A stretch of DNA of 64,000 nucleotides from Terriglobia bacterium (GCA_965198225.1 CBDAOY010000006.1:256001-320000); one strand, 5' to 3'; positions 22,022-64,000 are shown, counted from the stretch's first letter. Numbers and translations: made by a program. The notes: generated from the sequence alone by a model not told the origin.

Positions 22022-24745
22022 CTAATTGTCCGTCGGAACCAGACGCTTCAACTCTTCGAAGAAGTTCAGGACGAGGATCACGGAGGTCGCGGCGGTTTCG
22101 GTGTCGACTGGTCGGGTCGTCAGGAAGCTCTGGTCGTCCAGTGCGACGTCGTACACTCTCGGCCTACCCCCACTGTAGAAAATGCCCGGCATCCGGAACA
22201 GGGGCGTGACAGAGCCAAGCTCGAACGAGTTCTCCGTTGTCGAGAACGTCGCCACCGCGATCTCATTCGTGGCACGGTTCCGGAAGAACAACTCCCGCCC
22301 GTTATGCGCCCAGACGGGTTCGACACCACCGCCGTTTGAAATCGGCCACTTCCCATCGTTGACGTTCGGGAACGGCCGCACGAAGACCTCATTACGGCCC
22401 GTCTCGTTGGACACGTACGCCAGCCAGCGGCCGTCCCGCGAGACTGCGGGGTACGCCTCAAAAAACCTGTCGCTCACGACCAGCGGCTCCGCTTCGCCGT
22501 CCTCGCCGGGTCGCAGCCCGATGATGTCTGAGGTGGGGTGTTCGGGTGGGGCGGGGTTCCTGCGGACCACCAGCCACCCGTCCGGGCTCCAGACACCCTC
22601 CCCACTCGGGGAGTCCGAGTCTCCGTAGACCAACTCGGCCTCCGCCGTGCCGTTGGCCGGCCGCTGCCACACGCGATAAAATTGGCCGGGACCGACAGAA
22701 TTCGAGTTCCCCCGCCTCGACGCGAACGTGATCTCCCGGCCATCGGGCGTCCAGGCCGGGAGCTGTTCCAGAGCATCATCGAAGGTGAGACGGGACATCG
22801 GGCCATCCGGCAGTACCTTGGTCCAGATGTCCACATTCCCGTCCGTTTCGTTCGTGAACACCACCCGGCCGCCATCCGGAGACAGCCGCAGTCCATTGTG
22901 CTGCCCCTCATTTGTCCAACGGAGCGTTTCGCCCGGGCTGACCGGGCTCGCCTCACCCGAACGGGTCACCCACACGAACTCGCGCACGCCAGAAACCCCG
23001 CCCGCAGCATAGACGAGACTGCCGTCCTCCGACACGGCAAAGGCCATGTCACCGAAGAGGCCGATCGTCAGGCCGTCCACAACAGGAACGGCATTCCCTG
23101 TGAACGCCGCACGCGCCACATCGAACGGCGCGGCCATGAGCTGCCCGTCCGGGGTACCGAACAGCAAGTGCCCTGACGCCGCGTAACGCGCCCATCCTCC
23201 CGGTTTCAGCATCTTCCGCTCGCCCGTCTCCAGGTCCATCGACCAAATGGCTGCGTCACTGCTGGATGAATCGCGCAGCACTGTATGCAGCAAGACCTTC
23301 CCACCGGGCATGGGATGGGGGACGTGGGCGAGGTCTCCCTCCGAACGCTGGGTCACCGTTTCGATCTCGCCGCCGGTATCCGGCACGCGGCTGATGGCGA
23401 AGTCCAGGCCCATGAAGTAGAGCCATCCATCGTCGGACCAGGACGCAGTGCGAGCATTTTCTGCCAGTGTCCGGCCCGGTCCCCCGGCAACCGGCACCAC
23501 CCGCAGCGGGCCCGGATTGCCCTGGACGAACGCCACTTCTCTCCCGTCCGGTGAAACCGCAAAGACAGCGCCTCCTCCGACTCCTGCAGTTCCCGGAATC
23601 GGCCGTGCCTCCAGTCCGTTCCAGTTCCGCATCCACAGCTGCGACCCTCCGCTCGTCTCTGCAGGACCCACATAGATGAGAGCCGAACCATCCCGGGTCA
23701 GCTCAAGCCAGCCGGTCGGGGTCTGCCCGTCCTGGAACGGCGTATCGAATCGGGCGATCGAACGCAAAGGTTCGGTCACAGGACGAAGCAGCGACCAACT
23801 GGCGACGACGGCGAACATCGCGGCTAAGACCGTCATCGCGACCGTCAGCCGATTCCAGCGCCCCACCTCCGGTGTCGAGGCCGACAGCTCGCCGCCCGTG
23901 TCGAACGCGCCTTCCAGGGCCAGCCGCATGTCGGCCATGTCGGAGACCCGCTGCTTCGGCTCTCTCTCGAGGCACCGCGTGAGAAACACACGGAGCGTGG
24001 GCGACAGATCGGACGGCAGTGCCTTCCAGGGGACCTCCCCCCGTAGCACCGCTGCCAGAGTGAGCGACACATCTTCGGCCTCGAAGGCACGTTGTCCAGT
24101 GAACATTTCGTAGACCACGCACCCGAAAGCCCAGATGTCGGTGCGCTTGTCGACCGCCTTCCCCCGGGCTTGCTCGGGGCTCATGTAGGCAGCGGTTCCG
24201 AGGATGATCCCCTGCTGCGTCGCCGCCAGGCTCAGCGTGGGAGATTGCGACAAGCTCTCATCCGTCCCATCGCCCGCAAATGCCTTCGCCAACCCGAAGT
24301 CCAGCACCTTCACTTTGCCGTCGGGAGTGACCTTGATGTTGGCGGGTTTCAGGTCCCGGTGGATCACTCCTTTTTCATGGGCCGCTTCGAGAGCCTCGGC
24401 GATCTGGAGTGCGAGCTGGAGGGATTCTTCGACAGGGATCGCACCACGCTTGAGCCGGTCGGCCAGGGTGTCGCCTTCTACGAGTTCGAGGACCAGGAAC
24501 CGCGTGCCTTCGTGTTCCTCTAGGCCGTGGATGGTTGCGATGTTCGGATGGTTCAGGGACGCCAGCAGCTTTGCTTCACGCTCAAACCGGGCCAGCCGTT
24601 CTTCATCTTTGGCGAATTCCTCGGGTAGAGTCTTGATCGCAACCTGCCGCCCCAGCTTCGAGTCCTGCGCCAGCCATACCGATCCCATGCCGCCCTGCCC
24701 GAGCTTGTCGGTGATCTCGTAGTGGCCCAGAGTCTTCCCGATCAT
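22022..24745 (-). CDS. K1: Ser/Thr kinase - TM - TolB/PD40-like beta-propeller receptor
   Basis: 907 aa; GQGGMG, VAIK, HRDLKPAN, DFG, GTAAYMSPEQ; TM helix; SPDG-type repeats; ends VLNFFEELKRLVP. Confidence 0.93.
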   Translation of the reverse strand: MIGKTLGHYEITDKLGQGGMGSVWLAQDSKLGRQVAIKTLPEEFAKDEERLARFEREAKLLASLNHPNIATIHGLEEHEGTRFLVLELVEGDTLADRLKRGAIPVEESLQLALQIAEALEAAHEKGVIHRDLKPANIKVTPDGKVKVLDFGLAKAFAGDGTDESLSQSPTLSLAATQQGIILGTAAYMSPEQARGKAVDKRTDIWAFGCVVYEMFTGQRAFEAEDVSLTLAAVLRGEVPWKALPSDLSPTLRVFLTRCLEREPKQRVSDMADMRLALEGAFDTGGELSASTPEVGRWNRLTVAMTVLAAMFAVVASWSLLRPVTEPLRSIARFDTPFQDGQTPTGWLELTRDGSALIYVGPAETSGGSQLWMRNWNGLEARPIPGTAGVGGGAVFAVSPDGREVAFVQGNPGPLRVVPVAGGPGRTLAENARTASWSDDGWLYFMGLDFAISRVPDTGGEIETVTQRSEGDLAHVPHPMPGGKVLLHTVLRDSSSSDAAIWSMDLETGERKMLKPGGWARYAASGHLLFGTPDGQLMAAPFDVARAAFTGNAVPVVDGLTIGLFGDMAFAVSEDGSLVYAAGGVSGVREFVWVTRSGEASPVSPGETLRWTNEGQHNGLRLSPDGGRVVFTNETDGNVDIWTKVLPDGPMSRLTFDDALEQLPAWTPDGREITFASRRGNSNSVGPGQFYRVWQRPANGTAEAELVYGDSDSPSGEGVWSPDGWLVVRRNPAPPEHPTSDIIGLRPGEDGEAEPLVVSDRFFEAYPAVSRDGRWLAYVSNETGRNEVFVRPFPNVNDGKWPISNGGGVEPVWAHNGRELFFRNRATNEIAVATFSTTENSFELGSVTPLFRMPGIFYSGGRPRVYDVALDDQSFLTTRPVDTETAATSVILVLNFFEELKRLVPTDN

Positions 24746-27463
24746 GGCACCGGTACCCGTTCCTTGAGTTCTTCGAAGAAGTTCTCGACCACGATGACCT
24801 CGGTCGCGGCCGCCTCGCCCTCGCCCTCGTAGGGGCGGACCATCAGGAACCGCTGATCATCTGACGTGATATCGTAGAAGTTGTCGCCCCGGTTCACGTA
24901 GTATTCCGCCGGTACGGTGAACAGCGTCTCCTGCGCCAGCACCTGCCCCGAGCCTGCATCGAACTGGGCAGCCACCAGCCCACGGTCCTCGTCCACGAAG
25001 AACAGCTCACGCCCGCTGTGCGCCCAGAGCGGCCCGAGCCCCCCGTCCCTCGAGATCCGCACCCTGGCCGAGTTCACATCGGGGAGCGGACGCAGGAACA
25101 CCTCGCGGCGGCCCGTTTCGTCGGAACTGTACGCCAGCCATCTCTCGTCCGGCGACAATGCCGGTTCACCCTCGGCAAACTCCGGTGTCGCCACCAGCGG
25201 TATGGCCGCGCTGTCCTCGCCCGGACGGAAAGCCAGGATGTCGCGCAGGCCCAGACCTACAGCCTCGTTTGCCGCGGCGCGGAGCACGAGCCACTCGCCA
25301 TCGGGACTCCACGACCCTTGGGCGAAGGGCCGCTCTTCGTCGAGCACCAGCACCGCTTCTCCCGTTCCGTCAGCACTCTTAGACCATACGTTCCTGTCAC
25401 CCACGGGACCCGAGAAGTACGTCACGGTCTGACCATCGGGCGTCCAGAATGGCCTGAAGTCCTCATCCTCGGCGAACGTGAGCCGCTCCAGCGGACCGTC
25501 GGGCAGGTGCTTGATCCAGATGTCCTGGTTGCGCTCAACCACGGTGGCGAACGCCATCCGCGTCCCGTCCGGTGAAAGCCTCGGCCCGGAGAAGTTAGAC
25601 CTACCGAATGACCATCCGCGATCGACGGATGTCGCCTGGCCCGAGCGCGTTACCCAGACGAACTCGGAGTCGCCGCTCCCACCGCCAGCCTGATACACAA
25701 GCGTGCTGTCGTCCGACAGCGCGAGGTGGACCGAACCGAGGGAGCGCACACCTACACCCTCGGCCAGCGCCACTGGGTCTCCCGCCAGCTGCAGCGCGTC
25801 CTGGTCGAACGAAGCGGCCAGGAGCCTCCCGTCCGCCGTCACGTTGACCAGATGCCCCGACGCTGCGTAGCGGGCGAACACGCCGCGCACGAGGACCTCG
25901 TGCTCCCCGGTCTCCATGTCCGCCACCGCGATGTCGTACTGGCTAAGGTCGCCAATGGGCTCGTGGGCCACCGTGAACAGCACGCCGCGACCGTTGGGGA
26001 GCGCCTGCGGCCAGAGGTGACCCGTCTCGTTTTGTGCTGTGTCGAGCACGGTGAACGGCTCCACCTCGCCGCTCGCCTCCGGCACGCGGAAAAGAGCACT
26101 CCCCCCAGGAGCCGAGAAGTAGATGTAGCCGTCGGGACCCCAGGCGAGCCCCGCAAGTCCAACGCCGCTCTCCACGATCGCCAACGGGGGCCCACCGCTC
26201 AGTGAGACCGCGCGGACCCCGCCACCTGCGTAGAAGGCCACCCTCCGGCCGTCGGCAGAGAAGACGGGGTTCAGCGCTCCTTCGGAGCCCGCGATGGGCG
26301 TCGCCTGGAGTTGATCACGTCGGCGTAGCCAGAGCTGTCGGCCCTGTTCCCCCGGACCCACGTAGACCATCCGAGTCCCGTCCGGTGAGACTGCGACGTT
26401 CGAGCCGAAGCCGTCGCCCCGCTGAGTGACAGGTAACTCGATGCTGTAGCGGCTGACGGGCCTCGCTTCCGGGGCCGAGGGACGGAGGAGCGCCAAGGCG
26501 AGGGTCCCCGCCAGGACGGCGGCGACTGCCGCTAACGCAACCGAGAGCCGGTTCCACCCACCGACGCCCGCAGGGACTCCAGTCCCATCGGCGGTCCCAT
26601 GTCTGGACCCCGGATCAGCCAGTACTTTCTGAATATCCACCCGGACGTCCGCGATGTCGTGGTACCTGTCCTTGGCCTCCTTCTCCAGGCAACGTTCAAG
26701 GAGCAGCCGAATGCGCGGATGCAGGTTCGGTGGCAGGCTTTTCCAGTCCGGTTCTCTCGCAAGCACCCAGGCGAGAACGTCGGACGCAGTGGGGCCTTCA
26801 TAGACTTGCCGCCCGGTCAGCACCTCGAACAAGACGCATCCGAACGCCCAAATATCCGCACGCTTGTCGACTTCCTGCCCTCTCGCCTGCTCCGGGGACA
26901 TGTACGCGGCGGTTCCGAGGATGATCCCCTGCTGCGTCGCCGCCATGCTCAACGTTGGTGAGTTTGAGAGGCTGGCATCGGCACCGTCCCCTATGAATGC
27001 CTTTGCTAACCCGAAGTCCAGCACCTTCACGTTGCCGTCCGGCGTGACCTTGATGTTCGCAGGCTTCAGAATCCCGATGGATGACACCCTTCTCGTGTGC
27101 GGCTTCTAACGCCTCGGCAATCTGCAGGGCGAGTTTGAGGGATTCTTCGACCGGGATGGCACCACGCTTCAGCCGATCCGCCAGCGTGTCGCCTTCGACC
27201 AGTTCCAAGACGAGGAAACGGGTGCCTTCGTGTTCTTCGAGGCCGTGGATCGTGGCGATATTCGGGTGGTTCAACGAAGCAAGCAGTTTCGCTTCGCGTT
27301 CAAACCGGGCAAGGCGCTCTTCGTCCTTGGCGAACTCCTCGGGAAGCGTCTTGATAGCCACCTGCCGGCCCAACTTCACATCCTGCGCCAGCCACACGGA
27401 TCCCATACCGCCCTGGCCGAGCTTGTCGGTGATCTCGTAGTGGCCGAGCGTCTTGCCGATCAT
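24742..27463 (-). pseudogene. K2: kinase-propeller receptor with a +1 frameshift in the HRDLK motif
   Basis: ORFs 26798-27463 and 24742-27087 join if one T is removed from cgggattctgaag (~27071); could be a sequencing error. Confidence 0.85.
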
Positions 27464-29905
27464 GGCACCGGCACCCGTTCCTTCAGTTCTTCGAACCAGT
27501 TGAGGACGATGTTGATTTGGGGCCGTGCGGATTCCGAGGTTTCGGTTTGGTCCGCAGGTATGATGACCACGAATTGTTCCCCATCAGGCATGATGTCGTA
27601 GCTTCGGTAAGTGCCGAATGCCAGGAACCCCTGGATAGGAAGCGCCTGCTCGTTCGTGACTGTGACGGCACCGTTAGTTGAAACGTCGATGCCAATTATT
27701 CTCCGTGCCCCAGCCCCAGCCTGGAAAACCCGTCGGTAAAACAACTCACTTCCGTCTGGCGACCAGAGCGGAAACACCCCGCCGTTCTGTGTGAGCTGAT
27801 ATTTCACACCTGTCGCCGGAACTGGCTGGACGTAAACTTGGTTGGGCCCACTTTCGCTGGAATAGTACGCCAGCCAGTTCCCGTCAGGGGAGAACACCGA
27901 ACCGGCCGGGAGGGAACCGGGCATGGAGTAAAACACTTCCGGTGCGGCCTCACCATCTAGCGATAACGTCCAGATCTCCCTTTCTCCGTCGCTACCAATC
28001 GCCTGAAAGGAAAGAGTGCGTCCATCCGGTGACCAGGACTCCGGCCAATGCCGGACACCTTCTTCGGCATTCGTTAAGGGTTCGGCGACCCCGCTTCCAT
28101 CTGCGGATTGCCACCAAATGCCCGTGGTTCCATCTCTGTCTGAGGCGAAGGTCAAGCGTTCACCATCAGGCGTCCATATGGGTCGGCTGTTGGTGCCTTC
28201 CCTCGTTAGCTGCCGAATAGCTGAGTTACCAGACAGATCGTAAACCCAGACTTGCCCCTCGCCTTCAGGTGTCTGTACCGCAAGCTGCGTTCCATCCGGC
28301 GAAATGCGGGGCGTCAAATATTGAGCGGGCGGGACGTTGAGCGGTTCCACGCCGCCGTTACGGTCTGCCAATGTGAGAGTACCGTTGGCAGTTGATGTGC
28401 CCGCCCCGACAACGTAAACAAGCGAACCATCGGTAGAGAAACTGAAATGTCCCGTGCCGGTTTGGGCTCCTGGTGCTCTTGCCATACCCTCCACAATCGA
28501 AACCGGTCCACCCGTCACTTCCAGACTCGCCAAATCAAACGGAACTGCGAACAGTCCATCCTCAAGCGCATAGGCGAGATGTCCGGTCGGCACGTAGCGG
28601 GCGTCGCTGCCGCCGCTCAGCAACTCTTTCTGCTCGCCCGTGTCCAGTGACTGCACCACAATCTGTGCTTCGTCCCAACGACCGAGCCCTGTTGCGCTTG
28701 TCAGTGTGAACAGCACCGATTTCCCATCCGGCAATGCTTGTGGTCCATGGACTTGCCCTTCCTCGTTCAATACGAGCGTTTCTGGAGTTCCACCGTTGGC
28801 CGAAACCCACATGACGCCGCCGGGTTCACCCCACACGATCATGTCGTCCTCACTCCAACTCACCCCGAAAGGATTGGTCGCCACATCGCATAGCTTCACA
28901 GGTGCTCCGCCGCTGATGGCAATCGTCTTCAACTGTTGGTCCGTCTGGGACCAGTAGCCAACCGACTGACCATCCGGCGAGAAGAACGGGTTGGTCGGGG
29001 TTTCATCAGTCCCCGGTATGGGATGCGCTTCCAACTCGTCCATCGAACGCAAGTACAGTTGCGTGTTGGCAACATAGACGATGTTGGACCCATCGGGGGA
29101 TACCGCTACAAGAGGACGGCCTGCGTTTGTGAAATCCTGATCGCCGGGTAGCACATGGGAGAACCGGCTGATGGGACGGGGTTCGGGCGGTTTCAGGTAC
29201 CAGCCTGCCACCCCAGCGACGATTACGCTGAGAACGACCGCAAGTGCGATCCATCGCAGTATCGGTCTCGGCGGTGCCTGAATGACATCGGCAACCGGCT
29301 GGACCAGCAGACCTTTGGATCGCTCAACGACTGTTCAATCTCAATCCGCACATCCCCAGCAGCCTGCCACCGGTCCTTCGGTTCCTTGTTCAGACACCGT
29401 CGGAGTAGATGCTGAATACTCGGGTGCAGGCTCGTCTGCAATGCCGTGTACTCAGGGTCGCGGGCAAGAACGGATGCCATCACATCCGACACCAATTCAC
29501 CCTGGAACGCTTGCCGCCCGGTCAGCATCTCGAACAGAACGCAGCCGAATGCCCAAATGTCCGCCCGTTTGTCCACTGGCACACCACGTGCTTGCTCTGG
29601 ACTCATGTAAGCCGCGGTGCCGAGAATGATCCCTTGCTGCGTTGCCGCCAGACTCAATGTCGGCGACTGCGACAAGTTCACATCAGCGCCATCTCCGGCG
29701 AATGCTTTGGCCAGCCCGAAGTCCAGCACCTTGACTTTGCCGTCGGGTGTGACCTTGATATTGGCGGGCTTTAGGTCTCGATGAATCACACCCTTCTCAT
29801 GGGCTGCTTCAAGAGCCTCGGCAATCTGGAGTGCGAGCTTCAGGGATTCTTCGACGGGTATAGCCCCACGCCTCAACCGATCGGCCAGCGTGTCGCCTTC
29901 AACTA

Positions 29906-30719
29906 GGGCGTGTTAACACTAATGAGCATGAATGTTTTATAATCAGGCATGGAGATCACACAGGAGCAGTATTGTCGCATCGAGCCGGAACTGCCGCGTC
30001 AGCGGGGCAACGTCAGTCTTTCGAACCTGACGGTCTTGAACGCCATTTTGTATGTGGCTGAGCAGGGCTGCAAGTGGCGCGGTCTGCCCAAGCGCTTTGG
30101 CAACTGGCACACCATCTACACCCGGATGAACCGCTGGTCCAAGAACGGGGTGCTCGACGCCGTCTTCGAAAAACTCCAGCGCGAGCAACTGGTGCGCATC
30201 CGGGTGGAAGCCGTTTCGATGGACTCGACCATTGTGAAGGTGCATCCCGACGGCACAGGAGCGTTAAAAAAAACGGTCCGCAAGCGATCGGCAAATCCCG
30301 CGGTGGATGGACCACCAAGATTCATCTGGTTGCCGCGAATGCTCGAACGGCGATAACGTTTGCGCTCTCGCCCGGCCAAGCGCACGACGCCCCGCAGGGC
30401 CGCGAGCTGCTCGCCGGCCTGGGGCCGTTGCCCGCGCCGCTGCCGCTGCTGATGGACCGTGCCTACCAGGACGACCAGACCCGCCAATTGGCTCTGGATT
30501 TTGGGTGGATTCCCGTCGTGCCGCCCAAGCGCAACCGCTTGGAGCCGTGGGAATACGACCGCGTTCTCTACCGCCGCAGGAACGAAGTCGAGAGGCTCTT
30601 CCGCCGACTCAAAGGTTTCCGGCGTATATTCTCCCGCTTCGATAAACTCGACGTCATGTTCCTCGCCTTCCTTCACTTCGCTCTCATCGTCGAGGCACTA
30701 CGTTAGTGTTAACACGCCC
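29906..30719 (+). mobile_element. IS5-family element (two-ORF type), copy 1
   Basis: TIRs gggcgtgttaacactaa / ttagtgttaacacgccc, TA duplicated within a CTAG target, 814 bp. Confidence 0.93.
29949..30706 (+). CDS. IS5-family transposase, two overlapping ORFs likely joined by -1 frameshift at an A run (~30266-30273)
   Basis: GCKWRGLPKRFGNWHTIYTR, MDSTIVKVH; second frame IGKSRGGWTTKIH, DRAY, RNEVERLFRRLKGFRR. Confidence 0.9.
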
Positions 30720-30979
30720 TAGTTCGAGGACGAGGAACCGCGTGCCGCTGTCTTCTTCCAAGCCGTGGATCGTGGCAATGTTCGGGTGGTTTAGCGAAGC
30801 GAGTAGCTTGGCTTCACGTTCAAACCGCGCCAACCGCTCCTCGTCCTTCGCGAACTCCTCGGGTAGAGTCTTGATCGCAACCTGCCGACCCAGCTTCGAG
30901 TCCTGCGCCAGCCACACCGATCCCATGCCTCCCTGACCGAGCTTGTCGGTGATCTCGTAGTGGCCCAGCGTCTTGCCGA

Positions 30980-39075: not shown

Positions 39076-39393
39076 TCAAACAGCCGCATGGATGGATCAC
39101 CGCCTGGTCGGAAGAGTGGAAAAACCGAGGTAAGACGGGGCTTTTCGACGAGATCCACATGGAAGTATCGACGATAGGGAATGTGGTTCGCCCTTCGCCT
39201 TCAGGCCGGGCCGATTTGATGGACATAGGTGGTCGGATCGGTCAGCATAGCGCTCAGACTGACTCGTTCATGAAAACACCACTTTCTATTGGACCATCCT
39301 CAAACTGCGAGGGCGTTATACGGAAACAGGCGATCGAGCCGCTTGCTGAACGACACTTCTGAATGTATTATTAACAGTACGTTTGGAGGTGAT

Positions 39394-39669
39394 ATGCGGA
39401 AAATCCCGAGGATTGTACCTGTGACCGATCTCCGCCAGGATGCGGCATCGGTACTGGAGGAACTTCAGAAGGCTGACGAGCCCTGGATCATTACCCAAAG
39501 GGGGAGGGCCACGGCCGTCCTGCTCAACGTCGAGGCCTACGAGCGCTCGCAACAGGAAAACGAACTGCTTCGGCTCCTGGCGGTCGGTGAGAAGGAGATC
39601 GCCCAGGGGAAAGGGCACTCTCTTGATAGCGTGATGAAAGATGCAGACCGGCTGCTTCGGACAGACTGA
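39394..39669 (+). CDS. Phd/YefM-family antitoxin
   Basis: IVPVTDLRQDAASVL, IITQRGRATAVLLNVEAYE; GGAGGT RBS before ATG 39394. Confidence 0.9.
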   Translation: MRKIPRIVPVTDLRQDAASVLEELQKADEPWIITQRGRATAVLLNVEAYERSQQENELLRLLAVGEKEIAQGKGHSLDSVMKDADRLLRTD

Positions 39670-45953: not shown

Positions 45954-46021
45954 CCTGTCAATCCCCCCTGGTGGTTGGCTGCACTGAGGTTGACCGTGCA
46001 AATCCGTACAATCGGTTCAAA

Positions 46022-46057
46022 GAGTTCGTAGCTGCCGAGTTGGGTGCCGGGGGTCAT
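46022..46057 (-). pseudogene. Kinase 5' stub (MTPGTQLGSYE)
   Basis: Identical to the first ~11 codons of K5 and K9 and coupled to the K8 stop by ATGA. Confidence 0.8.
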
Positions 46058-53600: not shown

Positions 53601-54190
53601 CTGCCCTCTCGCCTGTTCAGGAGACATATAGGCGGCGGTTCCGAGGATGATCCCCTGTTGCGTCGCAGCCATGCTCAACGTTGGTGAGTTTGAGAGGCTG
53701 GCATCGGCACCGTCGCCGATGAAGGCCTTCGCCAACCCGAAGTCCAGCACCTTGACCTTGCCGTCGGGTGTGACCTTGATGTTTGCGGGCTTCAGATCCC
53801 GGTGGATGACGCCTTTTTTGTGTGCCGCTTCCAGCGCTTCGGCTATCTGGAGAGCCAGCTTGAGGGCTTCTTCGACCGGGATGGCACCGCGCTTCGCCGG
53901 TCCGCCAGCGTGTCGCCTTCGACGAGTTCGAGGACGAGGAAGCGGGTGCCTTCGTGTTCTTCGAGTCCGTATATTGCGGCGATGTTCGGATGATTCAATG
54001 ACGCCAGCAGCTTCGCTTCACGCTCGAACCGGGCCAGCCGCTCTTCATCCTTGGCGAACTCGTCGGGCAACGTCTTGATGGCAACTTCACGCCCGAGCTT
54101 GGAATCCTTCGCACGCCAAACCTCGCCCATACCGCCCTTTCCGAGGGCGGAGAGGATCTCGTAGCTGCCGAGTTGGGTGCCGGGGGTCAT
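50653..54190 (-). pseudogene. K9: kinase-propeller receptor with several frameshifts and an IS5 insertion
   Basis: Start MTPGTQLGSYE at 54190; frameshifts near 53895 and 51940-51975; IS at 50870-51683; ends LNWFEELKERVPVP. Confidence 0.87.
50870..51683 (-). mobile_element. IS5-family element, copy 2 (inverted relative to copy 1)
   Basis: Same TIRs, 814 bp, TA duplication in CTAG; ORFs 51233-51640 and 50883-51515 nearly identical to copy 1. Confidence 0.93.
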
Positions 54191-55581
54191 TGGTTTTCTA
54201 GTTCCGCGGTCCAGTTGACGATGATCGTGACGGGAGGAGGGTCCAGGCTCAATATGATCACATCGTCTTGACTCCAACTCCCACCGGATGGCCGTGGCGG
54301 AGTTTCGGTGATCGTCTGGACCGCCCCTCCGCTGGCCGGGACTCGCTTGAGCAATCCGCCAGCAAAGAACCCTATGGATTCCCCATCCGGCGCCCAGAAT
54401 GGATACAGGGCCCCCTCGGTTCCTGCTAGCAGACGGGGAACCTCTTGATCCAGCCCCTGGATCCACAATTGTGGTGTCCTTGCACCACCGTCAAGAGGCA
54501 CACCGCCATATACGAAACGGCGACCATCAGGAGATAGGGCAAAGCCGAAACGCATGGATTTGGTATCGGGGACGACGGACAGCCGCGTCGGCTGAGCGGT
54601 AGGTTCTGAAGGTCCCGTAAACTGCTGTCCCACAACAGCGACAACTAACAGCAGTAGTGCAAGGGCCCACACCATTCGTTCTTTACGAAGGTTTCCGGGA
54701 ACAGTCGGTGCAGTTTCATCGACCACGGGTGGCGAAAATGCTCCCCCTAGTGCCAGGCGAACATCGCCAACGTCACGAATACGCTGCTTCTGATTCTTCT
54801 GTAGGCATCGCTGAATTGTGTTCGCGACTGCTGGCGGGGCGGAAGCGATTGCCTCCCAATCGGGTTCCTTCATCAGGATCGCAGCTAACGTCTCCGACAC
54901 ATCCGCGGCCTGAAACGCTAATTTGCCCGTCAGCAATTCATACAAGACGCATCCGAACGCCCAGACGTCGGTGCGTTTGTCGACGGTGCGGCCCTTCGCC
55001 TGTTCCGGCGACATGTAGGCCGCCGTTCCGAGGATTACGCCCTGTTGGGTTGCGGTCATGCTCAGGGTCGGGGAGTTCGATAGGTTCAAGTCTGAACCAT
55101 CCTCGGTAAAAGCTTTGGCGAGTCCGAAGTCAAGGACCTTCACTTTGCCTTCGGGTGTGACCTTGATGTTCAACGGCTTGAGATCGCGGTGGATGACACC
55201 TTTCTCGTGGGCGGCTTCGAGTGCCTCTGCAATCTGGAGGGCGAGCTTCAGCGATTCTTCGACAGGGATAGCGCCGCTCTTCAGCCGATCCGCCAGCGTG
55301 TCGCCTTCGACGAGTTCGAGGACCAGGAACCGTGTGCCGTGGTCTTCCTCGAGTCCGTGAATGGTCGCTATGTTCGGGTGATTCAGGGAAGCGAGTAATT
55401 TGGCTTCACGCTCAAACCGTGCCAGGCGTTCTCCGTCCTGTGCGAACTCTTCAGGGAGGGTCTTGATCGCTACTTCACGCCCGAGCTTGGAGTCCCGCGC
55501 ACGCCACACTTCGCCCATGCCACCCTTGCCGAGGGCAGAAACGACTTCATAGTGCGCGAGCTTTGAACCGGCCTGAATCAC
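54187..55581 (-). CDS. K10: kinase-TM receptor with most of the propeller deleted in frame
   Basis: 464 aa; complete kinase and TM, about two blades, then SLDPPPVTIIVNWTAELENQ as in the K6 terminus. Confidence 0.85.
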   Translation of the reverse strand: MIQAGSKLAHYEVVSALGKGGMGEVWRARDSKLGREVAIKTLPEEFAQDGERLARFEREAKLLASLNHPNIATIHGLEEDHGTRFLVLELVEGDTLADRLKSGAIPVEESLKLALQIAEALEAAHEKGVIHRDLKPLNIKVTPEGKVKVLDFGLAKAFTEDGSDLNLSNSPTLSMTATQQGVILGTAAYMSPEQAKGRTVDKRTDVWAFGCVLYELLTGKLAFQAADVSETLAAILMKEPDWEAIASAPPAVANTIQRCLQKNQKQRIRDVGDVRLALGGAFSPPVVDETAPTVPGNLRKERMVWALALLLLVVAVVGQQFTGPSEPTAQPTRLSVVPDTKSMRFGFALSPDGRRFVYGGVPLDGGARTPQLWIQGLDQEVPRLLAGTEGALYPFWAPDGESIGFFAGGLLKRVPASGGAVQTITETPPRPSGGSWSQDDVIILSLDPPPVTIIVNWTAELENQ

Positions 55582-55857: not shown

Positions 55858-55970
55858 CTAGTGTCCCGTAACCCGAGTATCGCTACACCTACCGATGGGG
55901 CTTGCGAGCCGAGATCGCGGAGTGAGCGAGGACTGATGCTCTCTCATCATGACGAGTGAACGACAAAGAT
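55858..55970 (-). mobile_element. Diverged partial relative of the 12872/14708 MITE
   Basis: ctagtg..gtaac..tatcg..ccgatggg..cttgcg..gatgctct.tcatc..cgacaaaga is collinear with the reverse complement of the MITE right half. Confidence 0.6.
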
Positions 55971-56070
55971 GTCGGCCCCGTTCTGTCCTATAATAGGCCC
56001 GTCTTCACACCACACGAGCGGTTGCGGGGCGGGTCGCGCACGCCCGCCTCCTCCGACACGGAGGTCTATA

Positions 56071-57267
56071 ATGGCGAATCCCTTCATCGGCCGGGCGCTG
56101 TCGGCGATTGCCGGCTTCTTGCTCCTGGCAACATCAGCCGCGACACAGCAGGTCCCTCAGCTCGATTCCTACGATGGAGTTGCCGTGCGGATCCTCCAGA
56201 GTAACAACGCCGGCGACATCCATCACATCATCGATCCGACGACCAACGAGGTAGTCGGGCTCATCAGGGGTTGCCCGAACCCCCATAACCTGACCGTCCA
56301 CCCGGATGGGCTCTATTACTACTGTTCGAACGAAATGGACCAGACCGTCGACGTCTTCGATACGAGGACGCTCGAGCTGGTTCTGCAGATTCCACTGTCT
56401 GCACGGCCGAACAAGATCCTGGTCCACAAGAAGCACCGGAAGATCTACGCCGGCATCGTGAGCCGCTCAGCCAATCCGCTCGGGCCCGGCTTCCAGGCCG
56501 ACGACCCGGACGGCCCGCTGCCTGCGGTGCTCGACGTGATCGACATCGACACCCACACGCTCATCAAGAGCATCGAGGTCCACCAACGGATCCACAACGT
56601 CTTCGCCACTCCGGACGAGAACTACGTGGTGGTCGGCATGAGGGGGACCGTGCGGCCCGGCGAGCCGACGATTCAGGTGATCGACCCGGTCACCGACACC
56701 GTGGCCTGGGGAATCGAGATGTCCGGGTACGAACAGTACGGCAGGACGCATCACGAGGTGCGCCCGATGGCCTTCGAGGCAGCCGATGATGGCTCGACCC
56801 GGCGCATTTTTGCGCAGGCGACGGGCATCAACGCCGTATGGGTGATCGATTGGAACACCCGCCAGGTGGTCGACATGCTGTGGCCGCCGCCGCTGCCGCT
56901 GTGGGAGAAGAACGCCGATGGGATCCAAAGCGGCGACATGCACGGCCTCGAGGTGCTCCCCGACCGGTCGGCGGTGTGGGCGTCGAGCCGCCTCGACAGC
57001 CGGATCTACGGCTGGAGCCTGCCGGATCTGAACTACATCGGCGCCGTGAAGGTTGGCCCGAGCGCCAACTGGATGACCGCGACGCCAGACAGCCGGTACA
57101 TGTACGTGGCGGTCTCTGGCAGCGACCACACGCTGGCCGTGGACCTCGAGAGCCTGGAGGTCGTCGCCACCATCAAGACCGGTGCGCGGCCGGCGCGCAT
57201 CAGCACGGCGATTCTGCCACCCGACCGCGTGAATCCCCCGGGAACCGGCATGCGATTACAGGAGTAG
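56071..57267 (+). CDS. Exported YncE/YVTN-type beta-propeller protein
   Basis: GGAGG RBS, signal peptide, NPHNLTVHPDG, TVDVFDT, ATPDSRYMYVA, VVATIKTGARP. Confidence 0.8.
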   Translation: MANPFIGRALSAIAGFLLLATSAATQQVPQLDSYDGVAVRILQSNNAGDIHHIIDPTTNEVVGLIRGCPNPHNLTVHPDGLYYYCSNEMDQTVDVFDTRTLELVLQIPLSARPNKILVHKKHRKIYAGIVSRSANPLGPGFQADDPDGPLPAVLDVIDIDTHTLIKSIEVHQRIHNVFATPDENYVVVGMRGTVRPGEPTIQVIDPVTDTVAWGIEMSGYEQYGRTHHEVRPMAFEAADDGSTRRIFAQATGINAVWVIDWNTRQVVDMLWPPPLPLWEKNADGIQSGDMHGLEVLPDRSAVWASSRLDSRIYGWSLPDLNYIGAVKVGPSANWMTATPDSRYMYVAVSGSDHTLAVDLESLEVVATIKTGARPARISTAILPPDRVNPPGTGMRLQE

Positions 57268-57273
57268 CGAGCC

Positions 57274-58125
57274 ATGAGTGCCAAACATTTCATCCTCACG
57301 CTCGGCCTCTTCCTGGCGCTGTCCACGTCTGCGGATTCGTTTGGGTTGCTTTCGTCCGCCGCCGCACAGTCGCCTGCGTTCCCGGGCCCATCGGATATCG
57401 AGACTTACCGGAACACCGTCGAGAGCGTCTTCATGGCCGATCGCGGTGGCACCATCGCCGGCTACGCGTCGTGCGTGATGTGCCACACCTGGCAGACGAG
57501 CGTGCGCTTCAGCCTGGAGACGCCCACCACCGAAGCCGGTTGGACCACCGAGCAGTCGCGGCGGAACTTCGACGTGGTGACCCAACTGGTGAACACGGCC
57601 AAGCCCGAGACCAGCCGGCTCCTGCTGAAGCCGCTCGCCGCCAACGCGGGGGGCCTCGGACACACCGGGGGGACCTACTGGACGTCGACGAGCGATCCCG
57701 AGTACCTATCTCTGCTCGGGTGGATCGAGAGCCTGCCCGCAGACCGGTACGTTTCCGGGCCCGAGCCAGAGCTTGATTTCGAGTTCTTTCGCGCGTGCGT
57801 GCAGCAGGTCTTCGCCAACCCCCGGGAGGGCCAGCTCCGCTGCAGCCGCTGCCATTCGGGGGGGCTCATGGGCTTTGCACCCGCTCCTCAGAGCGGCGAT
57901 GCGTGGAGCGACGAAGAGGCGCGGCGGGCCTACCGGGCGATCTCGCGCGTGATCATTCCGGGCAACCCCGAGCAGAGCCGTTTCCTGCTCAAGCCGCTCC
58001 ATCCCGACGGCGGAGGCGGCTACACGCACAATGGACCGCGACGCTGGCAGTCGCGTGACGACCCGGAATGGCAGATGCTGGCTGGATGGGTGCGGGGCGA
58101 ACGGACCGGCCAAAGCTGTCCATGA
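57274..58125 (+). CDS. Exported protein with two CxxCH motifs in an internally duplicated domain (putative diheme cytochrome c)
   Basis: CVMCH and CSRCH, each followed by P-E-x-SR-x-LLKPL...H-x-G...W...DPE...L-x-GW. Confidence 0.75.
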   Translation: MSAKHFILTLGLFLALSTSADSFGLLSSAAAQSPAFPGPSDIETYRNTVESVFMADRGGTIAGYASCVMCHTWQTSVRFSLETPTTEAGWTTEQSRRNFDVVTQLVNTAKPETSRLLLKPLAANAGGLGHTGGTYWTSTSDPEYLSLLGWIESLPADRYVSGPEPELDFEFFRACVQQVFANPREGQLRCSRCHSGGLMGFAPAPQSGDAWSDEEARRAYRAISRVIIPGNPEQSRFLLKPLHPDGGGGYTHNGPRRWQSRDDPEWQMLAGWVRGERTGQSCP

Positions 58126-58337
58126 TCAACTGGGGCTCTGCCCCGGACCCTGTCCCTACCAGACTCTCCATCGCATTCGAAGTTGAGCCTGTGTGTAGCG
58201 AATTCCTCGCGGATCGAAAGAACCTCCTCGCCGACTTGTCCCTGGCGAATTACTATCTGATCAACGATCCTGACCTGGTCGTTGCGCGGCTGTGGATCGT
58301 CAACGAGTCATTCGTCGGTATGTCGATGGGAAGTGCG

Positions 58338-58468
58338 AGGACAATGAAGCGAGAGTTGTCGTGTTCTTCGAGTCCGTAGATCGCAGCGATGGCCGGGTGG
58401 TTGAGCGAAGCCAGGAGTTTGGCTTCACGTTCGAATCCGAGCAACGCGTTCGGCATCTGGGGAAAAAT
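58338..58468 (-). pseudogene. Kinase gene fragment
   Basis: DAERVAR / FEREAKLLASLNHPAIAAIYGLEEHDNSRFIVL. Confidence 0.75.
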
Positions 58469-58511
58469 CCACCTTTCCGAGTCGGCGACTCCCGAGAACG
58501 GAGTCATGAGT

Positions 58512-59560: not shown

Positions 59561-60003
59561 GGTCCAGGATCTTACACCTTCGACGCTGGTCGTCCGTATT
59601 TTGATCAAGCCAATCGGCCGCTCATGGCCGCTGCGTACCGGGTTGATCCGCGAAGCCAGGATAGTTCCCGCGGCGTCGGGCTTCACGATTCGAATCGAAA
59701 CGAGCAACGCGTTCGGGTCATCATCTGGCAACCCCGGACCCATGCTCCCAAGCGGGCTACTTCAAGCACCAATGTCGATTCGGGCTGTAACTGCCATCCG
59801 ACCGGTATGCCCACACCCTTTCCGACCTGTCGGCGACTGCTCCCAAGGAATAGAACCCTAAGGTATTGATAAATCACGGCAGGCCAAAAACCGGGAAAAC
59901 CGGTCAATCTGCCGCTCGACGGGAAATTCCCTGGCAACCTGTCGAGCTGGCGCAGCCGGCTAGTCTGCGGCTTATCGGGAGTTGGAATGCAAATCCGGGC
60001 CAC

Positions 60004-61619
60004 CTACGGCACCGGCACCTTTTCCTTCAACTCTTCATCCCAGTTCAGGATCACCCGGATCTCATCGTCCGACGGGTCGCTGATCATCAGGAAGCGGTCC
60101 CCGTCGGGATGGAGGTCGTATGAACGGAAGGTGGAGTCCGGATACCGGAACGGGCCATCGAAAAGCCGAACCCTTTCGCCGAAGGTCATCGTTGACGGGT
60201 CCGTGATCTCTGTCGCCCAGATCTGGTTTCCGTTGCGGTAGAACAACTCCCGGCCATCGGGCGACCACAGCGGTTCGATCCCGAAATCAACCGTGTGCAG
60301 GTCCCCGACGCAATCGAGCAAAGCGCATACGAATACCTGGTCGCGACCGCTTTCATCGGATGTGTAAGCCACCCAGTTGCCGTCGGGAGAAAACTGGGCG
60401 AAACGGTCGGAACCCGCGGTTTGGACAAGGAGTTCGGTCTTGTCGTCGTCGACCGACAACAGCCAGATGTCGGCGCCCGTGTCCGGGTGGACATTCCCGT
60501 ATGCGAGCAGACGCTTCTCCGGAAGCCAGGATTCCGGTTGTTGACTGAACTCCTGGTTCAGGATTTCCTGGGCCTGACCGCCCCCGGTCGCATCAATGGA
60601 GTAGAGGTTCATGCTCCCGGACGTGTTCTGGGCAAACACGAGACTCCTGCTGTCCATCCAGAGAAAGCTTAAAATTCGATCCGCTATCTTTGTCGGGACC
60701 CCGCTCGCAATGTCGGTCACGAGGAGCGCCCGGTCCTCCCTCCTCACGGCGACGCGATCGCCACCTGGGGACAGCCGGGGTATTCGGTAATGGCCGGCCG
60801 GTATACCCAGTGGCTCCACGTCTCCCTCTCGATCCACCCACACCAATGCTTCCCGCAGCGGGCGCGGGACATAAGAAAGGGTTCCATTACTCGCGATCGA
60901 ATAGACAAAACCGGTAACCGGGCCGCCCAAAACGTCCGTCAGGATACCGACGTTATTACCAACCGTTGACAGACTCTCCAGATCGAAGGGTGTCGCTGTA
61001 ACTTGTGCGGTCTGGGTGAAGATCAGATGGCCAGTCGGGATGTAGGAAACATCATAGCCAAAGCCTGGGACTAGTACACTCTCCCACTGCATCGTGTCGA
61101 ACGAAAGGACCCCGACGCTGTTCGAGGAAGACACCACGGTAAAAACGACGCCGCCCCCGTCGGGCAAGTAGTGGGGCAAGATGTGTCTTGCCGTCGGGAG
61201 TGACCTTGATGTTCGCAGGTTTCAGATCCCGGTGGATGACGCCTTTCTCATGCGCGGCTTCTAACGCCTCGGCAATCTGGAGTGACAGCCTGAGGGACTC
61301 TTCGACAGGCATCGCACCACGCTTCACCCGATCCGCGAGCGTGTCCCCTTCGACGAGTTCGAGGACGAGGAAGCGGGTGCCGCTGTCTTCTTCAAGGCCG
61401 TAGATGGCGGCAATGTTGGGATGGTTCAACGATGCGAGAAGCTTGGCTTCGCGTTCAAACCGGGCGAGTCGCTCTTCCTCTCGGGCAAACTCTTCGGGAA
61501 GGGTCTTGATCGCCACCTGGCGTCCCAGCTTCTGGTCGGTCGCCTGATACACCTCGCCCATTCCGCCACGGCCGAGCTCAGAAGTAAATTTCGTAATGTC
61601 CCAGCGTCTTTCCGATCAT
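60004..61619 (-). pseudogene. K11: kinase-propeller receptor with a 5' frameshift and a large internal deletion
   Basis: MIGKTLGHYEI at 61619, extra T near 61588; kinase stops at KVTPDGK (~61185) and fuses out of frame to mid-propeller PHYLPDG; ends LNWDEELKEKVPVP. Confidence 0.85.
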
Positions 61620-61629
61620 TTACTCTTCG

Positions 61630-64000
61630 TCACGGCACCCGTTCCCTCAGTTCTTCAATCCAGTTGATGATGACGTTGACTTGCAGGGATTGCGTGGCGG
61701 CGGCACTACCGGTTGTCAGTCTTACGACGAACTTCTGGCCATCCTCAGTGACATCGTAGCTTCTCCGACCAAACATATTCGGAGGCGCAACGCTCGCGTC
61801 GCGGGGAAACAACTCCACGGGATTGCCACGGTCGAAGGTCGGCTCGGTCTCGACCTCGATAACCTGAAACGAATCACGAGCGCCAGTGTCCGCGTATACG
61901 AGTTCCTGTCCGTTCCGGATCCACACGGGAGCCGACGCAGCGTCGGTCGAGATGGATATCGGACCCGCATCACCCTCGACCGGATACGGCTGCACGTAAA
62001 GCTGCCCCTCGCCCAGCTCATAGACGAAGAAGCGGCCGTCCGGCGAAAAATCGGCATCGCGACCTCTCGGTACGATGACTCCCGCGGGAGCAGAGTCATC
62101 GTACCGGGTGCCTCTTTCCCAGGCATGAATCCCCTCACCGGAAACGAACAGCAGGACATCTCCGTCCGGCGACCAGGCGAAGGGTCCGAAGGGTTCATCC
62201 ACCTCGGTTCCGGGGAGCAACGTCGGAGTCCCGCCTGGAGCCGATGGAGTTGTCCACAGCGCTTTGCCACTTAGAAACGTGATGTCGGCCCCGTCATGTG
62301 ACCATAAAGGGCGTGTTCCACGCGCAATCCGATTCCATTGGTCATCTTGAATGTTGTAGATCCAAATGTTCGATCCGTCGTCGTCGTCAACTTGTACAGC
62401 GACGCGCAAATCGTCTGGAGAGAATCTCGGAAAGATGTAAAGCTGGGGGTCAGCCGTGAGCACTTCAGGCGTTCCGTCGCGGTCCAGGAATGCGAGGCCC
62501 CGCTCCGCACTGGCACCACCCGGAATGTGGACGAGAGTTCCCTGGGCAGAGACATCGTACTGCCCACTCCCGGTGGCGAAATCCATACCATTCGCTCGCT
62601 GGGTTCCGGCAACGATGGGCACCGGCCCTCCGGTAGTCGTGAGTGTTTGCGGATCGAATCGAAGTGCGACCAGGTCACTCTCCAGCGCGAACACAAGATG
62701 TCCGGTCTCAATGTAACGAGCGTCGCTGCCCCCGTCCCAGATGACCGTTCGATTTCCGGTTCCGGGAGTTTCAGCCACGATCTGGGCTTCGTCCCATCGG
62801 GCAATACCGGTTACCGACGTCAGAGAGAACAGGACCGTCTCGCCGTCGGGTAGCATCTGGGGTCCGTCGGCTTGTTCGCCGGGTTCGGTTGCGATCAGCA
62901 TCGTCGCCGTACCGCCGTCTGCCGGAACCGTCATGATCCCTCCGGGCTGTCCGTAAAGGATCCTGCCGTCGGGTCCCCAACTTGCACCAAACAGATTAGT
63001 GGCCGGTGTAATGGGCACTGGAATACCACCCTCCACCGAGACCCTCTTGATCTGGTTGTCCCTGGCGGAAAAGAACCCAATCGAGTTGCCGTCGGGCGAG
63101 AAGAACGGCATCGCCAGGACCTCGTTTGTACCCGCAATGGGACGGGCTTGCTGCTCATCCAGTTTCTTAAGGTACAACTGGTCGTTGGCAACGTAGACGA
63201 ATTGCGATCCGTCGGGCGCAACGGCCAACACCGGACGCCCCTGGCGGGTGAAAACCTGGTTTGCGGGCAGGACAAACGGGAAGCGGACTACGCGCTTTTC
63301 TTCCGGCAACGGTTCGGGCTTCAGGTTCCACGTGGCGATGACGGCTACGACTGCAACGAAGACAAGGGCGGCAACCCACGGAAGAATCGGTCGCTGTCCA
63401 AGCTCGCCTGAAGCCAGCATGACCTGGCTACCGCCCGGGTCTGCCAGAACCTGCTCCAACTCCACACGCACGTCCCCAATGTCATGCCATCGCTGCTTCG
63501 GCTCCTTCTCCAGACACCTCCGGAGCAGATCCCGCAACTTCGGATGAATCGTCGGGGGCAATCCCTTGTAGTCGGGATCGGATTTCAACACCGACGCCAT
63601 CACGTCCGACATCAACTCACCCCGGAACACCTGGCGGCCCGAAAGCATTTCGTAGAGGACACAGCCGAAGGCCCAGATATCGGCGCGCTTGTCGACCGTC
63701 ACGCCCCGTGCCTGCTCGGGGGACATGTATGCGGCTGTTCCCAGGATCACGCCTTGTTGGGTTGCGGCCATGCTGAGCGTGGGGGACTGCGACAGGCTCA
63801 CGTCCACACCATCCCCGGCAAACGCCTTTGCCAGTCCGAAGTCCAGGACCTTGATCTTCCCGTCGGGCGTGACCTTGATGTTCTCGGGCTTCAGGTCGCG
63901 GTGGATGACACCCTTCTCGTGTGCGGCTTCCAACGCTTCAGCGATCTGGAGCGCGAGTTCGAGGGATTCTTCCACAGCGACGGCGCCGCGCTTCAACCGG
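61630..64000 (-). CDS. K12: Ser/Thr kinase - TM - beta-propeller receptor (5' end outside window)
   Basis: HRDLKPEN, DFG, TM, propeller repeats, ends INWIEELRERVP. Confidence 0.9.
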   Translation of the reverse strand, partial: RLKRGAVAVEESLELALQIAEALEAAHEKGVIHRDLKPENIKVTPDGKIKVLDFGLAKAFAGDGVDVSLSQSPTLSMAATQQGVILGTAAYMSPEQARGVTVDKRADIWAFGCVLYEMLSGRQVFRGELMSDVMASVLKSDPDYKGLPPTIHPKLRDLLRRCLEKEPKQRWHDIGDVRVELEQVLADPGGSQVMLASGELGQRPILPWVAALVFVAVVAVIATWNLKPEPLPEEKRVVRFPFVLPANQVFTRQGRPVLAVAPDGSQFVYVANDQLYLKKLDEQQARPIAGTNEVLAMPFFSPDGNSIGFFSARDNQIKRVSVEGGIPVPITPATNLFGASWGPDGRILYGQPGGIMTVPADGGTATMLIATEPGEQADGPQMLPDGETVLFSLTSVTGIARWDEAQIVAETPGTGNRTVIWDGGSDARYIETGHLVFALESDLVALRFDPQTLTTTGGPVPIVAGTQRANGMDFATGSGQYDVSAQGTLVHIPGGASAERGLAFLDRDGTPEVLTADPQLYIFPRFSPDDLRVAVQVDDDDGSNIWIYNIQDDQWNRIARGTRPLWSHDGADITFLSGKALWTTPSAPGGTPTLLPGTEVDEPFGPFAWSPDGDVLLFVSGEGIHAWERGTRYDDSAPAGVIVPRGRDADFSPDGRFFVYELGEGQLYVQPYPVEGDAGPISISTDAASAPVWIRNGQELVYADTGARDSFQVIEVETEPTFDRGNPVELFPRDASVAPPNMFGRRSYDVTEDGQKFVVRLTTGSAAATQSLQVNVIINWIEELRERVP

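Follow-up and report, generated by a model that had tools for sequence, protein, structure and literature searches.

Constant kinases and variable double-propeller sensors in a cluster of receptor Ser/Thr kinase genes of a Terriglobia genome

The stretch of DNA analyzed here (called the window for simplicity) comprises 64,000 nucleotides (nt), C6:256001-320000, of a 6.41-Mb Terriglobia (Acidobacteriota) genome that is assembled into nine contigs and 97% complete. Between positions 22022 and 64000, open reading frame (ORF) listing, Pfam and family hidden Markov models (HMMs) identified 12 genes or gene remnants of receptor Ser/Thr kinases together with one small fragment. An initial annotation of this DNA had claimed at least 12 same-strand paralogs, about half of them broken. 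Indeed, all 12 copies were found on the minus strand; six are intact (A, D, E, H, J and Q, with 876-907 amino acids (aa) for A, D, E, H and J) and six are broken or truncated (B, C, F, M, N and P). The arrangement is tandem as had been described, but it is interrupted by other genes and constitutes one cluster of a genome-wide family. The array does run off the window, as copy Q crosses the edge, but it ends just past it. The copies and the fragment are as follows.

22022-24745, minus strand: copy A, receptor Ser/Thr kinase, intact, 907 aa (kinase, transmembrane helix and two propellers), last gene of the chain F-E-D-C-B-A; ORF, Pfam matches to Pkinase (E = 1.5e-53) and PD40 (E = 6.6e-18).
24742-27463, minus strand: copy B, broken by an additional T at about 27071, within the region of the HRD motif; split into ORFs of 221 and 781 aa.
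27460-30983, minus strand: copy C, split by an insertion sequence (IS) after about codon 91 and carrying a frameshift at 29313; ORFs, family HMMs and reading of the lesions.
30980-33703, minus strand: copy D, intact, 907 aa, modeled at full length; ORF, Pfam and AlphaFold.
33700-36330, minus strand: copy E, intact, 876 aa, with an N-terminus of the MTPGTQ type; ORF and Pfam.
36327-38965, minus strand: copy F, with a kinase of the J type and one frameshift in the N-terminal lobe (N-lobe), first gene of the six-gene chain; ORF and reading of the lesion.
41640-44348, minus strand: copy H, intact, 902 aa; ORF and Pfam.
46054-48747, minus strand: copy J, intact, 897 aa, a deep second kinase type; ORF, Pfam and kinase tree, sensor modeled alone.
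About 50656-54190, minus strand: copy M, with several frameshifts and a second IS copy near its 3' end; ORF, family HMMs and reading of the lesions.
54187-55581, minus strand: copy N, a 464-aa open frame in which an internal deletion fuses the early sensor to a C-terminal tail of the F/J type; ORF and Pfam.
58331-58447 (C6:314331-314447), minus strand: fragment O, a short N-lobe piece next to a piece of an IS110-family transposase; 74% identity to residues 50-88 of D.
60004-61621, minus strand: copy P, with an early frameshift and a deletion of the C-terminal lobe (C-lobe), the transmembrane helix and the first part of the sensor; ORF and reading of the lesions.
61630-64000 and beyond, minus strand: copy Q, intact, crossing the window edge, with an 891-aa open frame (stop to stop) ending at C6:320305; ORF and family HMMs.

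All intact copies carry a Pkinase domain (E-values of 1e-50 to 1e-54) and PD40 repeats in Pfam, and the Pkinase scores (PF00069) of A, D, E, H, J and N amount to 172-184 bits at a cut-off of 31.7. The Hanks catalytic motifs are all present, i.e. the glycine loop, the VAIK lysine, HRD..N, DFG and (A/S)PE. In 46 aligned sequences, residues G16, G18, G19, K38, H129, R130, N136, D149, F150, G151 and P190 are invariant and D131 and E191 nearly so. The same alignment bears out the conserved C-terminal tail that had been noted before, which reads NW(F/I)EEL with nearly invariant N895 and W896. The kinase matches PknA of M. tuberculosis at E = 3e-52, and its activation-loop threonine aligns with a threonine of PknA. 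In an AlphaFold model of D, calculated with a 46-row alignment (predicted local distance difference test score, pLDDT, of 83), a disordered linker connects the kinase to a helix at residues 302-325, which is hydrophobic in sequence, and an all-beta part follows at residues 337-894. Foldseek aligned the modeled kinase with PknA and PknB (template modeling score, TMt, of 0.84-0.89, E of about 1e-20), and the model has the bilobal kinase fold. As the full-length model of D returned kinases only, the sensor of J was modeled on its own (pLDDT of 87); it was matched over its whole length by tandem double-propeller proteins, while TolB (2ojh) covered one propeller, i.e. half of the modeled sensor, at a TMt of 0.80. 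Instead of the single propeller proposed initially, the sensor is, as modeled, composed of two tandem TolB/PD40-type beta-propellers. A single membrane helix is predicted between kinase and sensor and the sensor would face the extracytoplasmic side; the intact protein is thus most likely a cytoplasmic PknA/PknB-like Hanks kinase followed by one membrane helix and an extracytoplasmic double-propeller sensor.

No NCBIfam equivalog model reaches its cut-off in the intact copies. The PknB_PASTA model (NF033483) scores 288-305 at a cut-off of 450 and covers the kinase part only, and the TolB model (TIGR02800) scores 73-104 at a cut-off of 343. Membership in the PASTA kinases was rejected on the grounds of this score and of the PD40 sensor, and TolB orthology was rejected as well, the propeller fold being the only common feature. 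The family resembles the PknB/PknA-type kinases of M. tuberculosis and Staphylococcus (Stk1) in its kinase (31-37% identical, same fold), in the order of N-terminal kinase, one membrane helix and outside sensor, and in the conserved activation-loop threonine. It differs from them by two PD40/TolB-type propellers in place of PASTA repeats, by an activation loop about 9 residues longer than in PknA and by its number of paralogs, which amounts to tens per genome as opposed to one or few. PknD of M. tuberculosis likewise combines a kinase, a membrane helix and an extracytoplasmic beta-propeller sensor. The PknD sensor is a six-blade propeller of the NHL type. PknD is a single gene with another repeat family, whereas the kinases of the window are arrayed and have two PD40/TolB-like propellers; they score 136-161 bits with the NCBIfam model of PknD (cut-off 839). 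TolB of the Tol-Pal system shares the propeller fold and the PD40 repeats, but the propellers investigated here are fused to a kinase and lack the context of the N-terminal TolB domain.

The genome contains 84 Pkinase matches and 29 strictly intact copies of the family, defined as a full kinase and a full sensor in one frame. These are distributed over at least eight clusters, located on contigs C4, C6 (three clusters), C7 (two), C8 and C9 (two), and over singletons. A further copy at G000:C9:755802-758498, found by genome search, is 82% identical to D and contains four in-frame TGA codons. Among 40 related genomes, 35 have a family match at E = 1e-50 or better, the match counts being lower bounds in 12 of the 40. 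Two complete (single-contig) congeners have 49 and 32 matches at E = 1e-60, and 16 of 19 and 7 of 11 of their fetched copies were strictly intact. The left flank of the array (window positions 1-12773) is syntenic in both congeners at about 70% nucleotide identity, and no family array lies beside this block in either of them; copy number and order therefore vary among relatives. A protein-database search with the sensor alone retrieved at least 6708 clusters at E = 1e-20 or better (among the 8000 scored). The source names of these homologs say at most 'serine/threonine-protein kinase' or 'PD40 domain-containing protein', and PF26549 and PF26550 are the precomputed domains listed for them. The family protein clusters stem mostly from uncultured Acidobacteriota and Gemmatimonadota, the latter contributing many members.

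The initial annotation had described the first ~130 codons as near-invariant and the sensors as strongly different. Both features were recovered, with N-lobe protein identities of 98% (A and D) and 94% (A and H) and sensor identities of 27-45% among the window copies (omega, the ratio of nonsynonymous to synonymous substitution rates, of 0.30-0.44). At the DNA level, N-lobe identity among copies is only 76-82%. For codons 1-130 of A and D (98% aa identity) the synonymous divergence (dS) was 1.12 and omega 0.02, and N-lobes at 94-98% protein identity generally have a dS of 0.9-1.8 and an omega of 0.02-0.1, i.e. most of their synonymous sites differ. Because the DNA is this diverged, with a dS of about 1 despite 98% protein identity, the paralogs are by this measure old and the constancy of the kinase is attributed to purifying selection rather than to recent homogenization. 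The constant part extends over residues ~1-220, with a mean pairwise identity of 0.60-0.82 in 20-residue windows (activation loop 0.40). The identity amounts to 0.35-0.41 in the alphaG-alphaI region, 0.14 in the juxtamembrane linker, 0.25 in the membrane helix and 0.24-0.39 in the sensors. Thus, alphaG-alphaI of the C-lobe and the juxtamembrane linker vary as much as the sensors do. In PknB-type kinases, variable parts of this kind serve as docking sites for partners. The proposal that many sensors feed one output was therefore not borne out: constancy is limited to residues ~1-220, and a single output is not established since the variable parts of the kinase coincide with such docking sites.

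The same data speak to the idea of concerted evolution, according to which the cluster arose by recent local tandem duplication, with gene conversion keeping the kinase halves alike and the sensors drifting. Such a process would account for the lower median dS of the N-lobe (1.38, as compared to 2.57-3.06 in the sensors of this genome's copies), for the first and last 150 nt of B and D, which are 98% identical whereas the part in between is 86-93% identical, for junction blocks that are 90-98% identical and for the young N-lobe (dS 0.36) shared by the otherwise saturated genes C6_985k and C9_1193k. However, N-lobes of nearly identical protein sequence have the high dS given above, the window copies are scattered over the sensor tree (six label changes for six copies) and likewise over the kinase tree, and B and D form the sole recent whole-gene duplicate (91% nucleotide identity). 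For these reasons conversion appears confined to short tracts at the gene ends. As the main cause, concerted evolution is largely refuted and we consider it very improbable.

Kinase and sensor trees were calculated for 52 intact copies (29 of this genome, 16 and 7 of the two congeners) and conflict at well-supported nodes. Approximately unbiased (AU) tests were performed in IQ-TREE with LG+G4 and fast searches. The kinase data rejected the sensor clades {C6_32k, C9_778k, C7_214k} (p = 5e-5) and {H, C9_781k} (p = 8e-7) but did not reject {D, A, L080, L081} as a clade (p = 0.29), and the sensor data rejected all three kinase clades tested (p of 1.8e-5 or less). A shared history of kinase and sensor was hence rejected in five out of six tests, in line with modular evolution and with the birth-and-death evolution suggested at the outset, of which pseudogenes, IS insertions, deletions, frameshifts and the duplicate pair B and D are further signs. 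Neither congruent trees nor a conserved gene order, the combination that had been named as evidence against that suggestion, were observed. The nearest relative agrees across C-lobe, propeller 1 and propeller 2 in only 13 of the 52 genes. Eight pairs have a dS below 0.4 in any module, and all of them are heterogeneous across modules except L086/L087, which is uniform. Representative dS values, including those for copies L080 and L081 of G003, are listed by module.

J and C6_985k: N-lobe 0.90, C-lobe 0.64, propeller 1 0.15, propeller 2 0.16.
A and G003 L080/L081: N-lobe 1.4-1.8, C-lobe 0.26, propeller 1 0.10, propeller 2 0.11.
G003 L080 and L081: N-lobe 0.51, C-lobe 0, propeller 1 0, propeller 2 0.
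H and C9_781k: N-lobe old, C-lobe old, propeller 1 0.10 (0.10-0.15), propeller 2 saturated.
C6_985k and C9_1193k: N-lobe 0.36, C-lobe old, propeller 1 saturated, propeller 2 saturated.

Between D and B the C-lobe differs at a dS of 0.77 and the linker and sensor at 0.06-0.12. Because dS is this uneven across the modules of young pairs, the N-lobe, the C-lobe plus sensor, and single propellers are read as having separate histories, recombination between paralogs being the rule as judged from these comparisons. In recent pairs of intact genes (A with the G003 copies, J with C6_985k) omega was 0.59-1.16 in the sensor and 0.05-0.12 in the kinase. The fast protein change of the sensors agrees with diversifying selection without being proof of it.

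Exchange extends beyond the genome. Four syntenic housekeeping genes of the left flank have a dS of 1.57 to saturated (67-73% protein identity). The sensor of A, in contrast, differs from copies L080 and L081 of the congener G003 at a dS of 0.10. The first propeller of H is 92% identical at the nucleotide level to a G003 locus, and the sensors of D and B have 79-80% nucleotide identity over 1.7-1.8 kb to contigs (0.6 and 1.3 Mb) labeled Longimicrobiales, i.e. of a different phylum. Horizontal transfer of sensor cassettes is the simplest way to read these values.

Genome-wide, 14 of 22 tandem junctions within the family are 4-nt ATGA overlaps of stop and start codons. The window has six of them, five in the 17-kb chain of six genes (F to E, E to D, D to C, C to B and B to A) and one from N to M; the junction from Q to P has a 12-nt spacer. 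Two junction types exist with seven cases each. In type I the upstream gene ends with FEELKERVPVP and the next begins with MIGKT, in type II the end is EL.NQ and the start MTPGTQ, and the type of tail is always paired with the type of N-terminus of the next gene. Both types recur in two congeners. The junction blocks in the window are the following.

24712-24787, minus strand: type I junction block (B to A).
27430-27505, minus strand: type I junction block.
30950-31025, minus strand: type I junction block.
33670-33745, minus strand: type I junction block.
36297-36372, minus strand: type II junction block.
54157-54232, minus strand: type II junction block.

Nucleotide identity among type I junctions was 0.78-0.98 from -45 to +30 (about 75 nt), 0.27-0.48 further upstream and 0.75-0.84 in the N-lobe. 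The overlaps suggest that the chained copies are probably co-transcribed and translationally coupled, and the conserved block is a likely anchor for recombination. Taken further, junction blocks and invariant 5' kinase DNA would act as 'slots' of a cassette-exchange system, in which recombination moves cassettes of C-lobe plus sensor, or propellers, between paralogs, genomes and phyla, and a shared pool of sensors is selected for variable, probably biotic, ligands. We put this forward tentatively and consider it rather unlikely in this full form; if true, slot-and-cassette exchange would be a bacterial counterpart of the diversification of receptor repertoires in eukaryotes.

Candidate partners were found elsewhere in the genome, which has six matches to FHA domains and eight to SpoIIE-type phosphatases; the PP2C families PF13672 and PF00481 had no match in it. 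On contig C1 (L130, G000:C1, 7494-11347) the start of an FHA-SpoIIE gene overlaps the stop of a family kinase by ATGA, and on contig C7 a family cluster has FHA and SpoIIE genes at a distance of 3.3 kb on its upstream side. At the C1 locus, a GGDEF gene is located upstream on the other strand. Their positions make the FHA and SpoIIE genes candidates for reading or resetting the kinases once these are phosphorylated.

Taken together, we regard the array as probably a cluster of an old receptor-kinase family with a core under purifying selection, exchanged sensor cassettes and a proposed signaling mechanism by ligand-driven dimerization. Ligand binding to the propellers would bring two receptors together, followed by mutual activation of their kinase domains and phosphorylation of the threonine in the activation loop; the phosphothreonines would be read by FHA-domain proteins. 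Dimerization and FHA read-out are adopted from the homologous PknB-type kinases. The evolution of the repertoire is more directly visible in the sequences. Very strong purifying selection keeps the catalytic core (residues ~1-220) constant, while C-lobe plus sensor, single propellers and the N-lobe act as separate cassettes exchanged among paralogs, congeners and phyla. Copies arise by duplication and are lost by frameshift, deletion and IS insertion. Several observations weigh against this reading. Promoter and terminator scans of the array were at chance (4 hits at 3.3 expected and 20 at 15.6 expected, respectively), so that the operon reading draws on the overlaps. The window contains no FHA or phosphatase gene, and dimerization and FHA read-out rest on PknB homology and on gene neighborhood elsewhere in the genome. 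With half of its 12 copies broken, this cluster may be less active than others. An omega near 1 in recent pairs could reflect relaxed constraint, and B is a pseudogene. The five contigs of an RNA run (X19) all fall on the IS (29904-30723) and none on the kinases. Finally, when short-read contigs of three public runs from three studies were aligned to the window, they ended in its repeated parts, i.e. the kinases and the junctions; among the contigs listed, none extended 31 nt beyond a junction in both directions. Because these contigs stop at the repeats, the tandem order is based on the assembly and on the similar arrays in relatives.

The broken contigs also bear on the question whether strain variants or dispersed paralogs were joined into a false tandem array. 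The 5' parts of the kinases and the junctions are repeated, and it is there that the contigs of all three runs end, as expected for such an artifact. Yet the genome is in only nine contigs, the array contig is 1.06 Mb long, the unique sensor parts are covered by contigs of three studies with 0-2 differences, and the single-contig genomes of two congeners hold adjacent copies with the same ATGA junction types. We therefore judge an assembly artifact to be extremely improbable. Contig 'joints' between copies, with sides of 20-26 nt, were set aside as they most likely come from other paralogs or organisms. As to the lesions, a contig of run X1 joins position 29902 to 30719 and thus shows copy C without the IS (816 nt skipped), and in contigs of X1 and X3 one additional G after 29313 brings C back into frame. 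The IS in C is therefore a polymorphism and the frameshift either a polymorphism or an assembly error, and 'broken' is, at least for C, a property of this assembly or strain. No indel was listed for the run contigs at the frameshift of B (~27071) or of F, which does not by itself prove that other runs share them. The large deletions and IS insertions seen in M, N and P belong to a different category.

Several other genes and mobile elements lie within the array or flank it: an amidase gene, a Phd/YefM antitoxin gene, a group II intron piece and a YncE-like propeller gene accompanied by one for cytochrome c. Four transposases, as genes or as pieces, are also present within the array. Apart from the IS in copy C, the transposase kinds are IS1182-like, IS5-like (second copy) and IS110-like (piece). 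Those with defined limits are listed below.

19335-20537: Mutator-type transposase gene, just outside the 3' end of the array; Pfam.
29903-30718, plus strand: IS4/IS5-type insertion sequence (DUF4096 and DDE_Tnp_1), 816 nt, in copy C; Pfam, limits from the IS-less contig, with 4 nt common to both sides.
39289-39669, plus strand: Phd/YefM-type antitoxin gene inside the array; Pfam.
40099-40361, plus strand: group II intron domains D1-D4, between F and H; Rfam, 118 bits (cut-off 49).
44376-46001, minus strand: amidase gene between J and H; Pfam Amidase, E = 2e-111.
About 50883-51640: second, near-identical and inverted copy of the IS4/IS5-type element, in copy M.
55969-58125, plus strand: two genes between N and P, one for a YncE-like beta-propeller and one that matches cytochrome c weakly; Pfam.

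The IS4/IS5-type element had very high depth in all four public runs compared, including the RNA run. The gaps between the amidase gene and its neighbors J and H are 52 and 27 nt, respectively, and it may be co-transcribed with them. Its N-terminus contains SRRQFI, which we take to resemble a twin-arginine export signal; an amidase exported in this way would be a periplasmic amidase beside periplasmic sensors.

Given these elements, the array might be seen as a gene graveyard, i.e. as the remains of a cluster that decays amid transposons and no longer has a role. The six broken or truncated copies would fit, as would the four transposase genes or pieces, the intron piece and the toxin-antitoxin gene among the copies and the fifth transposase beside them. 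But six copies keep frames of about 900 codons with a kinase omega of 0.02-0.1, ATGA coupling is kept at six junctions, and contigs of other runs show neither lesion of copy C, which argues that the breaks are young or polymorphic. We consider pure decay improbable. A different question is what the sensors recognize. Instead of nutrients or parts of the cell's own envelope, the propellers may bind variable molecules of other organisms such as phages, competitors or a host, in which case receptor turnover would be an arms race like that of plant receptor-kinase and immune-receptor clusters. The sensor omega of 0.59-1.16 in recent intact pairs, the different copy numbers of the congeners, the exchange of cassettes across species and phyla and the IS-rich, non-syntenic setting are in agreement with this idea. 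On the other hand, an omega at or below 1 is no proof of positive selection, niche-specific abiotic or polymer-derived ligands would fit as well, and general Pfam scans, which did not include a defense or phage library, revealed no known defense gene beside the array. We therefore regard biotic recognition as a possible but doubtful role.

In the right flank, scattered matches of 86-96% were found, as is typical of mobile elements. The conserved left flank contains, at 9734-11166 on the plus strand, a small ORF and then a gene of the zf-HC2 anti-sigma type; the two resemble a pair of extracytoplasmic function (ECF) sigma and anti-sigma factors. Further on, an element of about 275 bp with long terminal inverted repeats occurs at 12873-13147 and 14708-14980 (92% identical) on either side of a Na+/H+ exchanger gene. 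It looks like a miniature transposable element (MITE), and many copies of it with 71-90% identity are present in related genomes.

Two well-known systems offer analogies. Clusters of plant receptor-like kinases and immune receptors are likewise tandem and unite a conserved kinase with a fast-evolving ectodomain, uneven copy number, pseudogenes and exchange between paralogs. They differ in that there is no common descent, that chaining by stop/start overlaps and horizontal transfer of sensor cassettes are bacterial, and that a role in immunity is not known for the family in the window. Rhs/CdiA loci with orphan C-terminal cassettes resemble the array in the constant 5' homology which allows 3' cassettes to be swapped and in their arrays of full and partial copies, but they encode toxins with immunity genes and promoter-less orphans, whereas the array consists of receptors, has no immunity genes and holds mostly full-length genes.

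Closer in descent, Candidatus Solibacter usitatus Ellin6076 belongs to the same phylum and shares a large kinase expansion and mobile elements (PMC3174227). Its Ser/Thr kinases form paralog groups, mostly less than 50% identical, without positive selection when averaged over whole genes, in a genome with many mobile elements (PMC3174227). The main account, leaving aside its supplementary trees and tables, describes no tandem ATGA-coupled arrays, module mosaics, junction blocks or transfer between species (PMC3174227). PD40 is listed among the domains commonly tethered to prokaryotic kinases (PMC2877116). The genes of the window are thus of a known kind, namely receptor Hanks kinases, and both their architecture and kinase expansions are already in print. 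Full-text literature searches returned no account of such arrays as a system, as the initial annotation had stated, nor of their junctions, module-wise mosaics or exchange across species; the shuffling of cassettes, likewise not found in print, appears new here together with the conservation of the junctions and the exchange between species.

Expansions of bacterial Ser/Thr kinases are usually given as gene counts, and the sequence analyzed here reveals how such a repertoire is built up and turned over. If the sensors were matched with their ligands, the family would represent a natural library of propeller receptors on one signaling chassis and would provide a handle on perception by abundant, poorly known bacteria. 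Should selection prove to favor the shuffling, it would add a new bacterial case of repertoire diversification.

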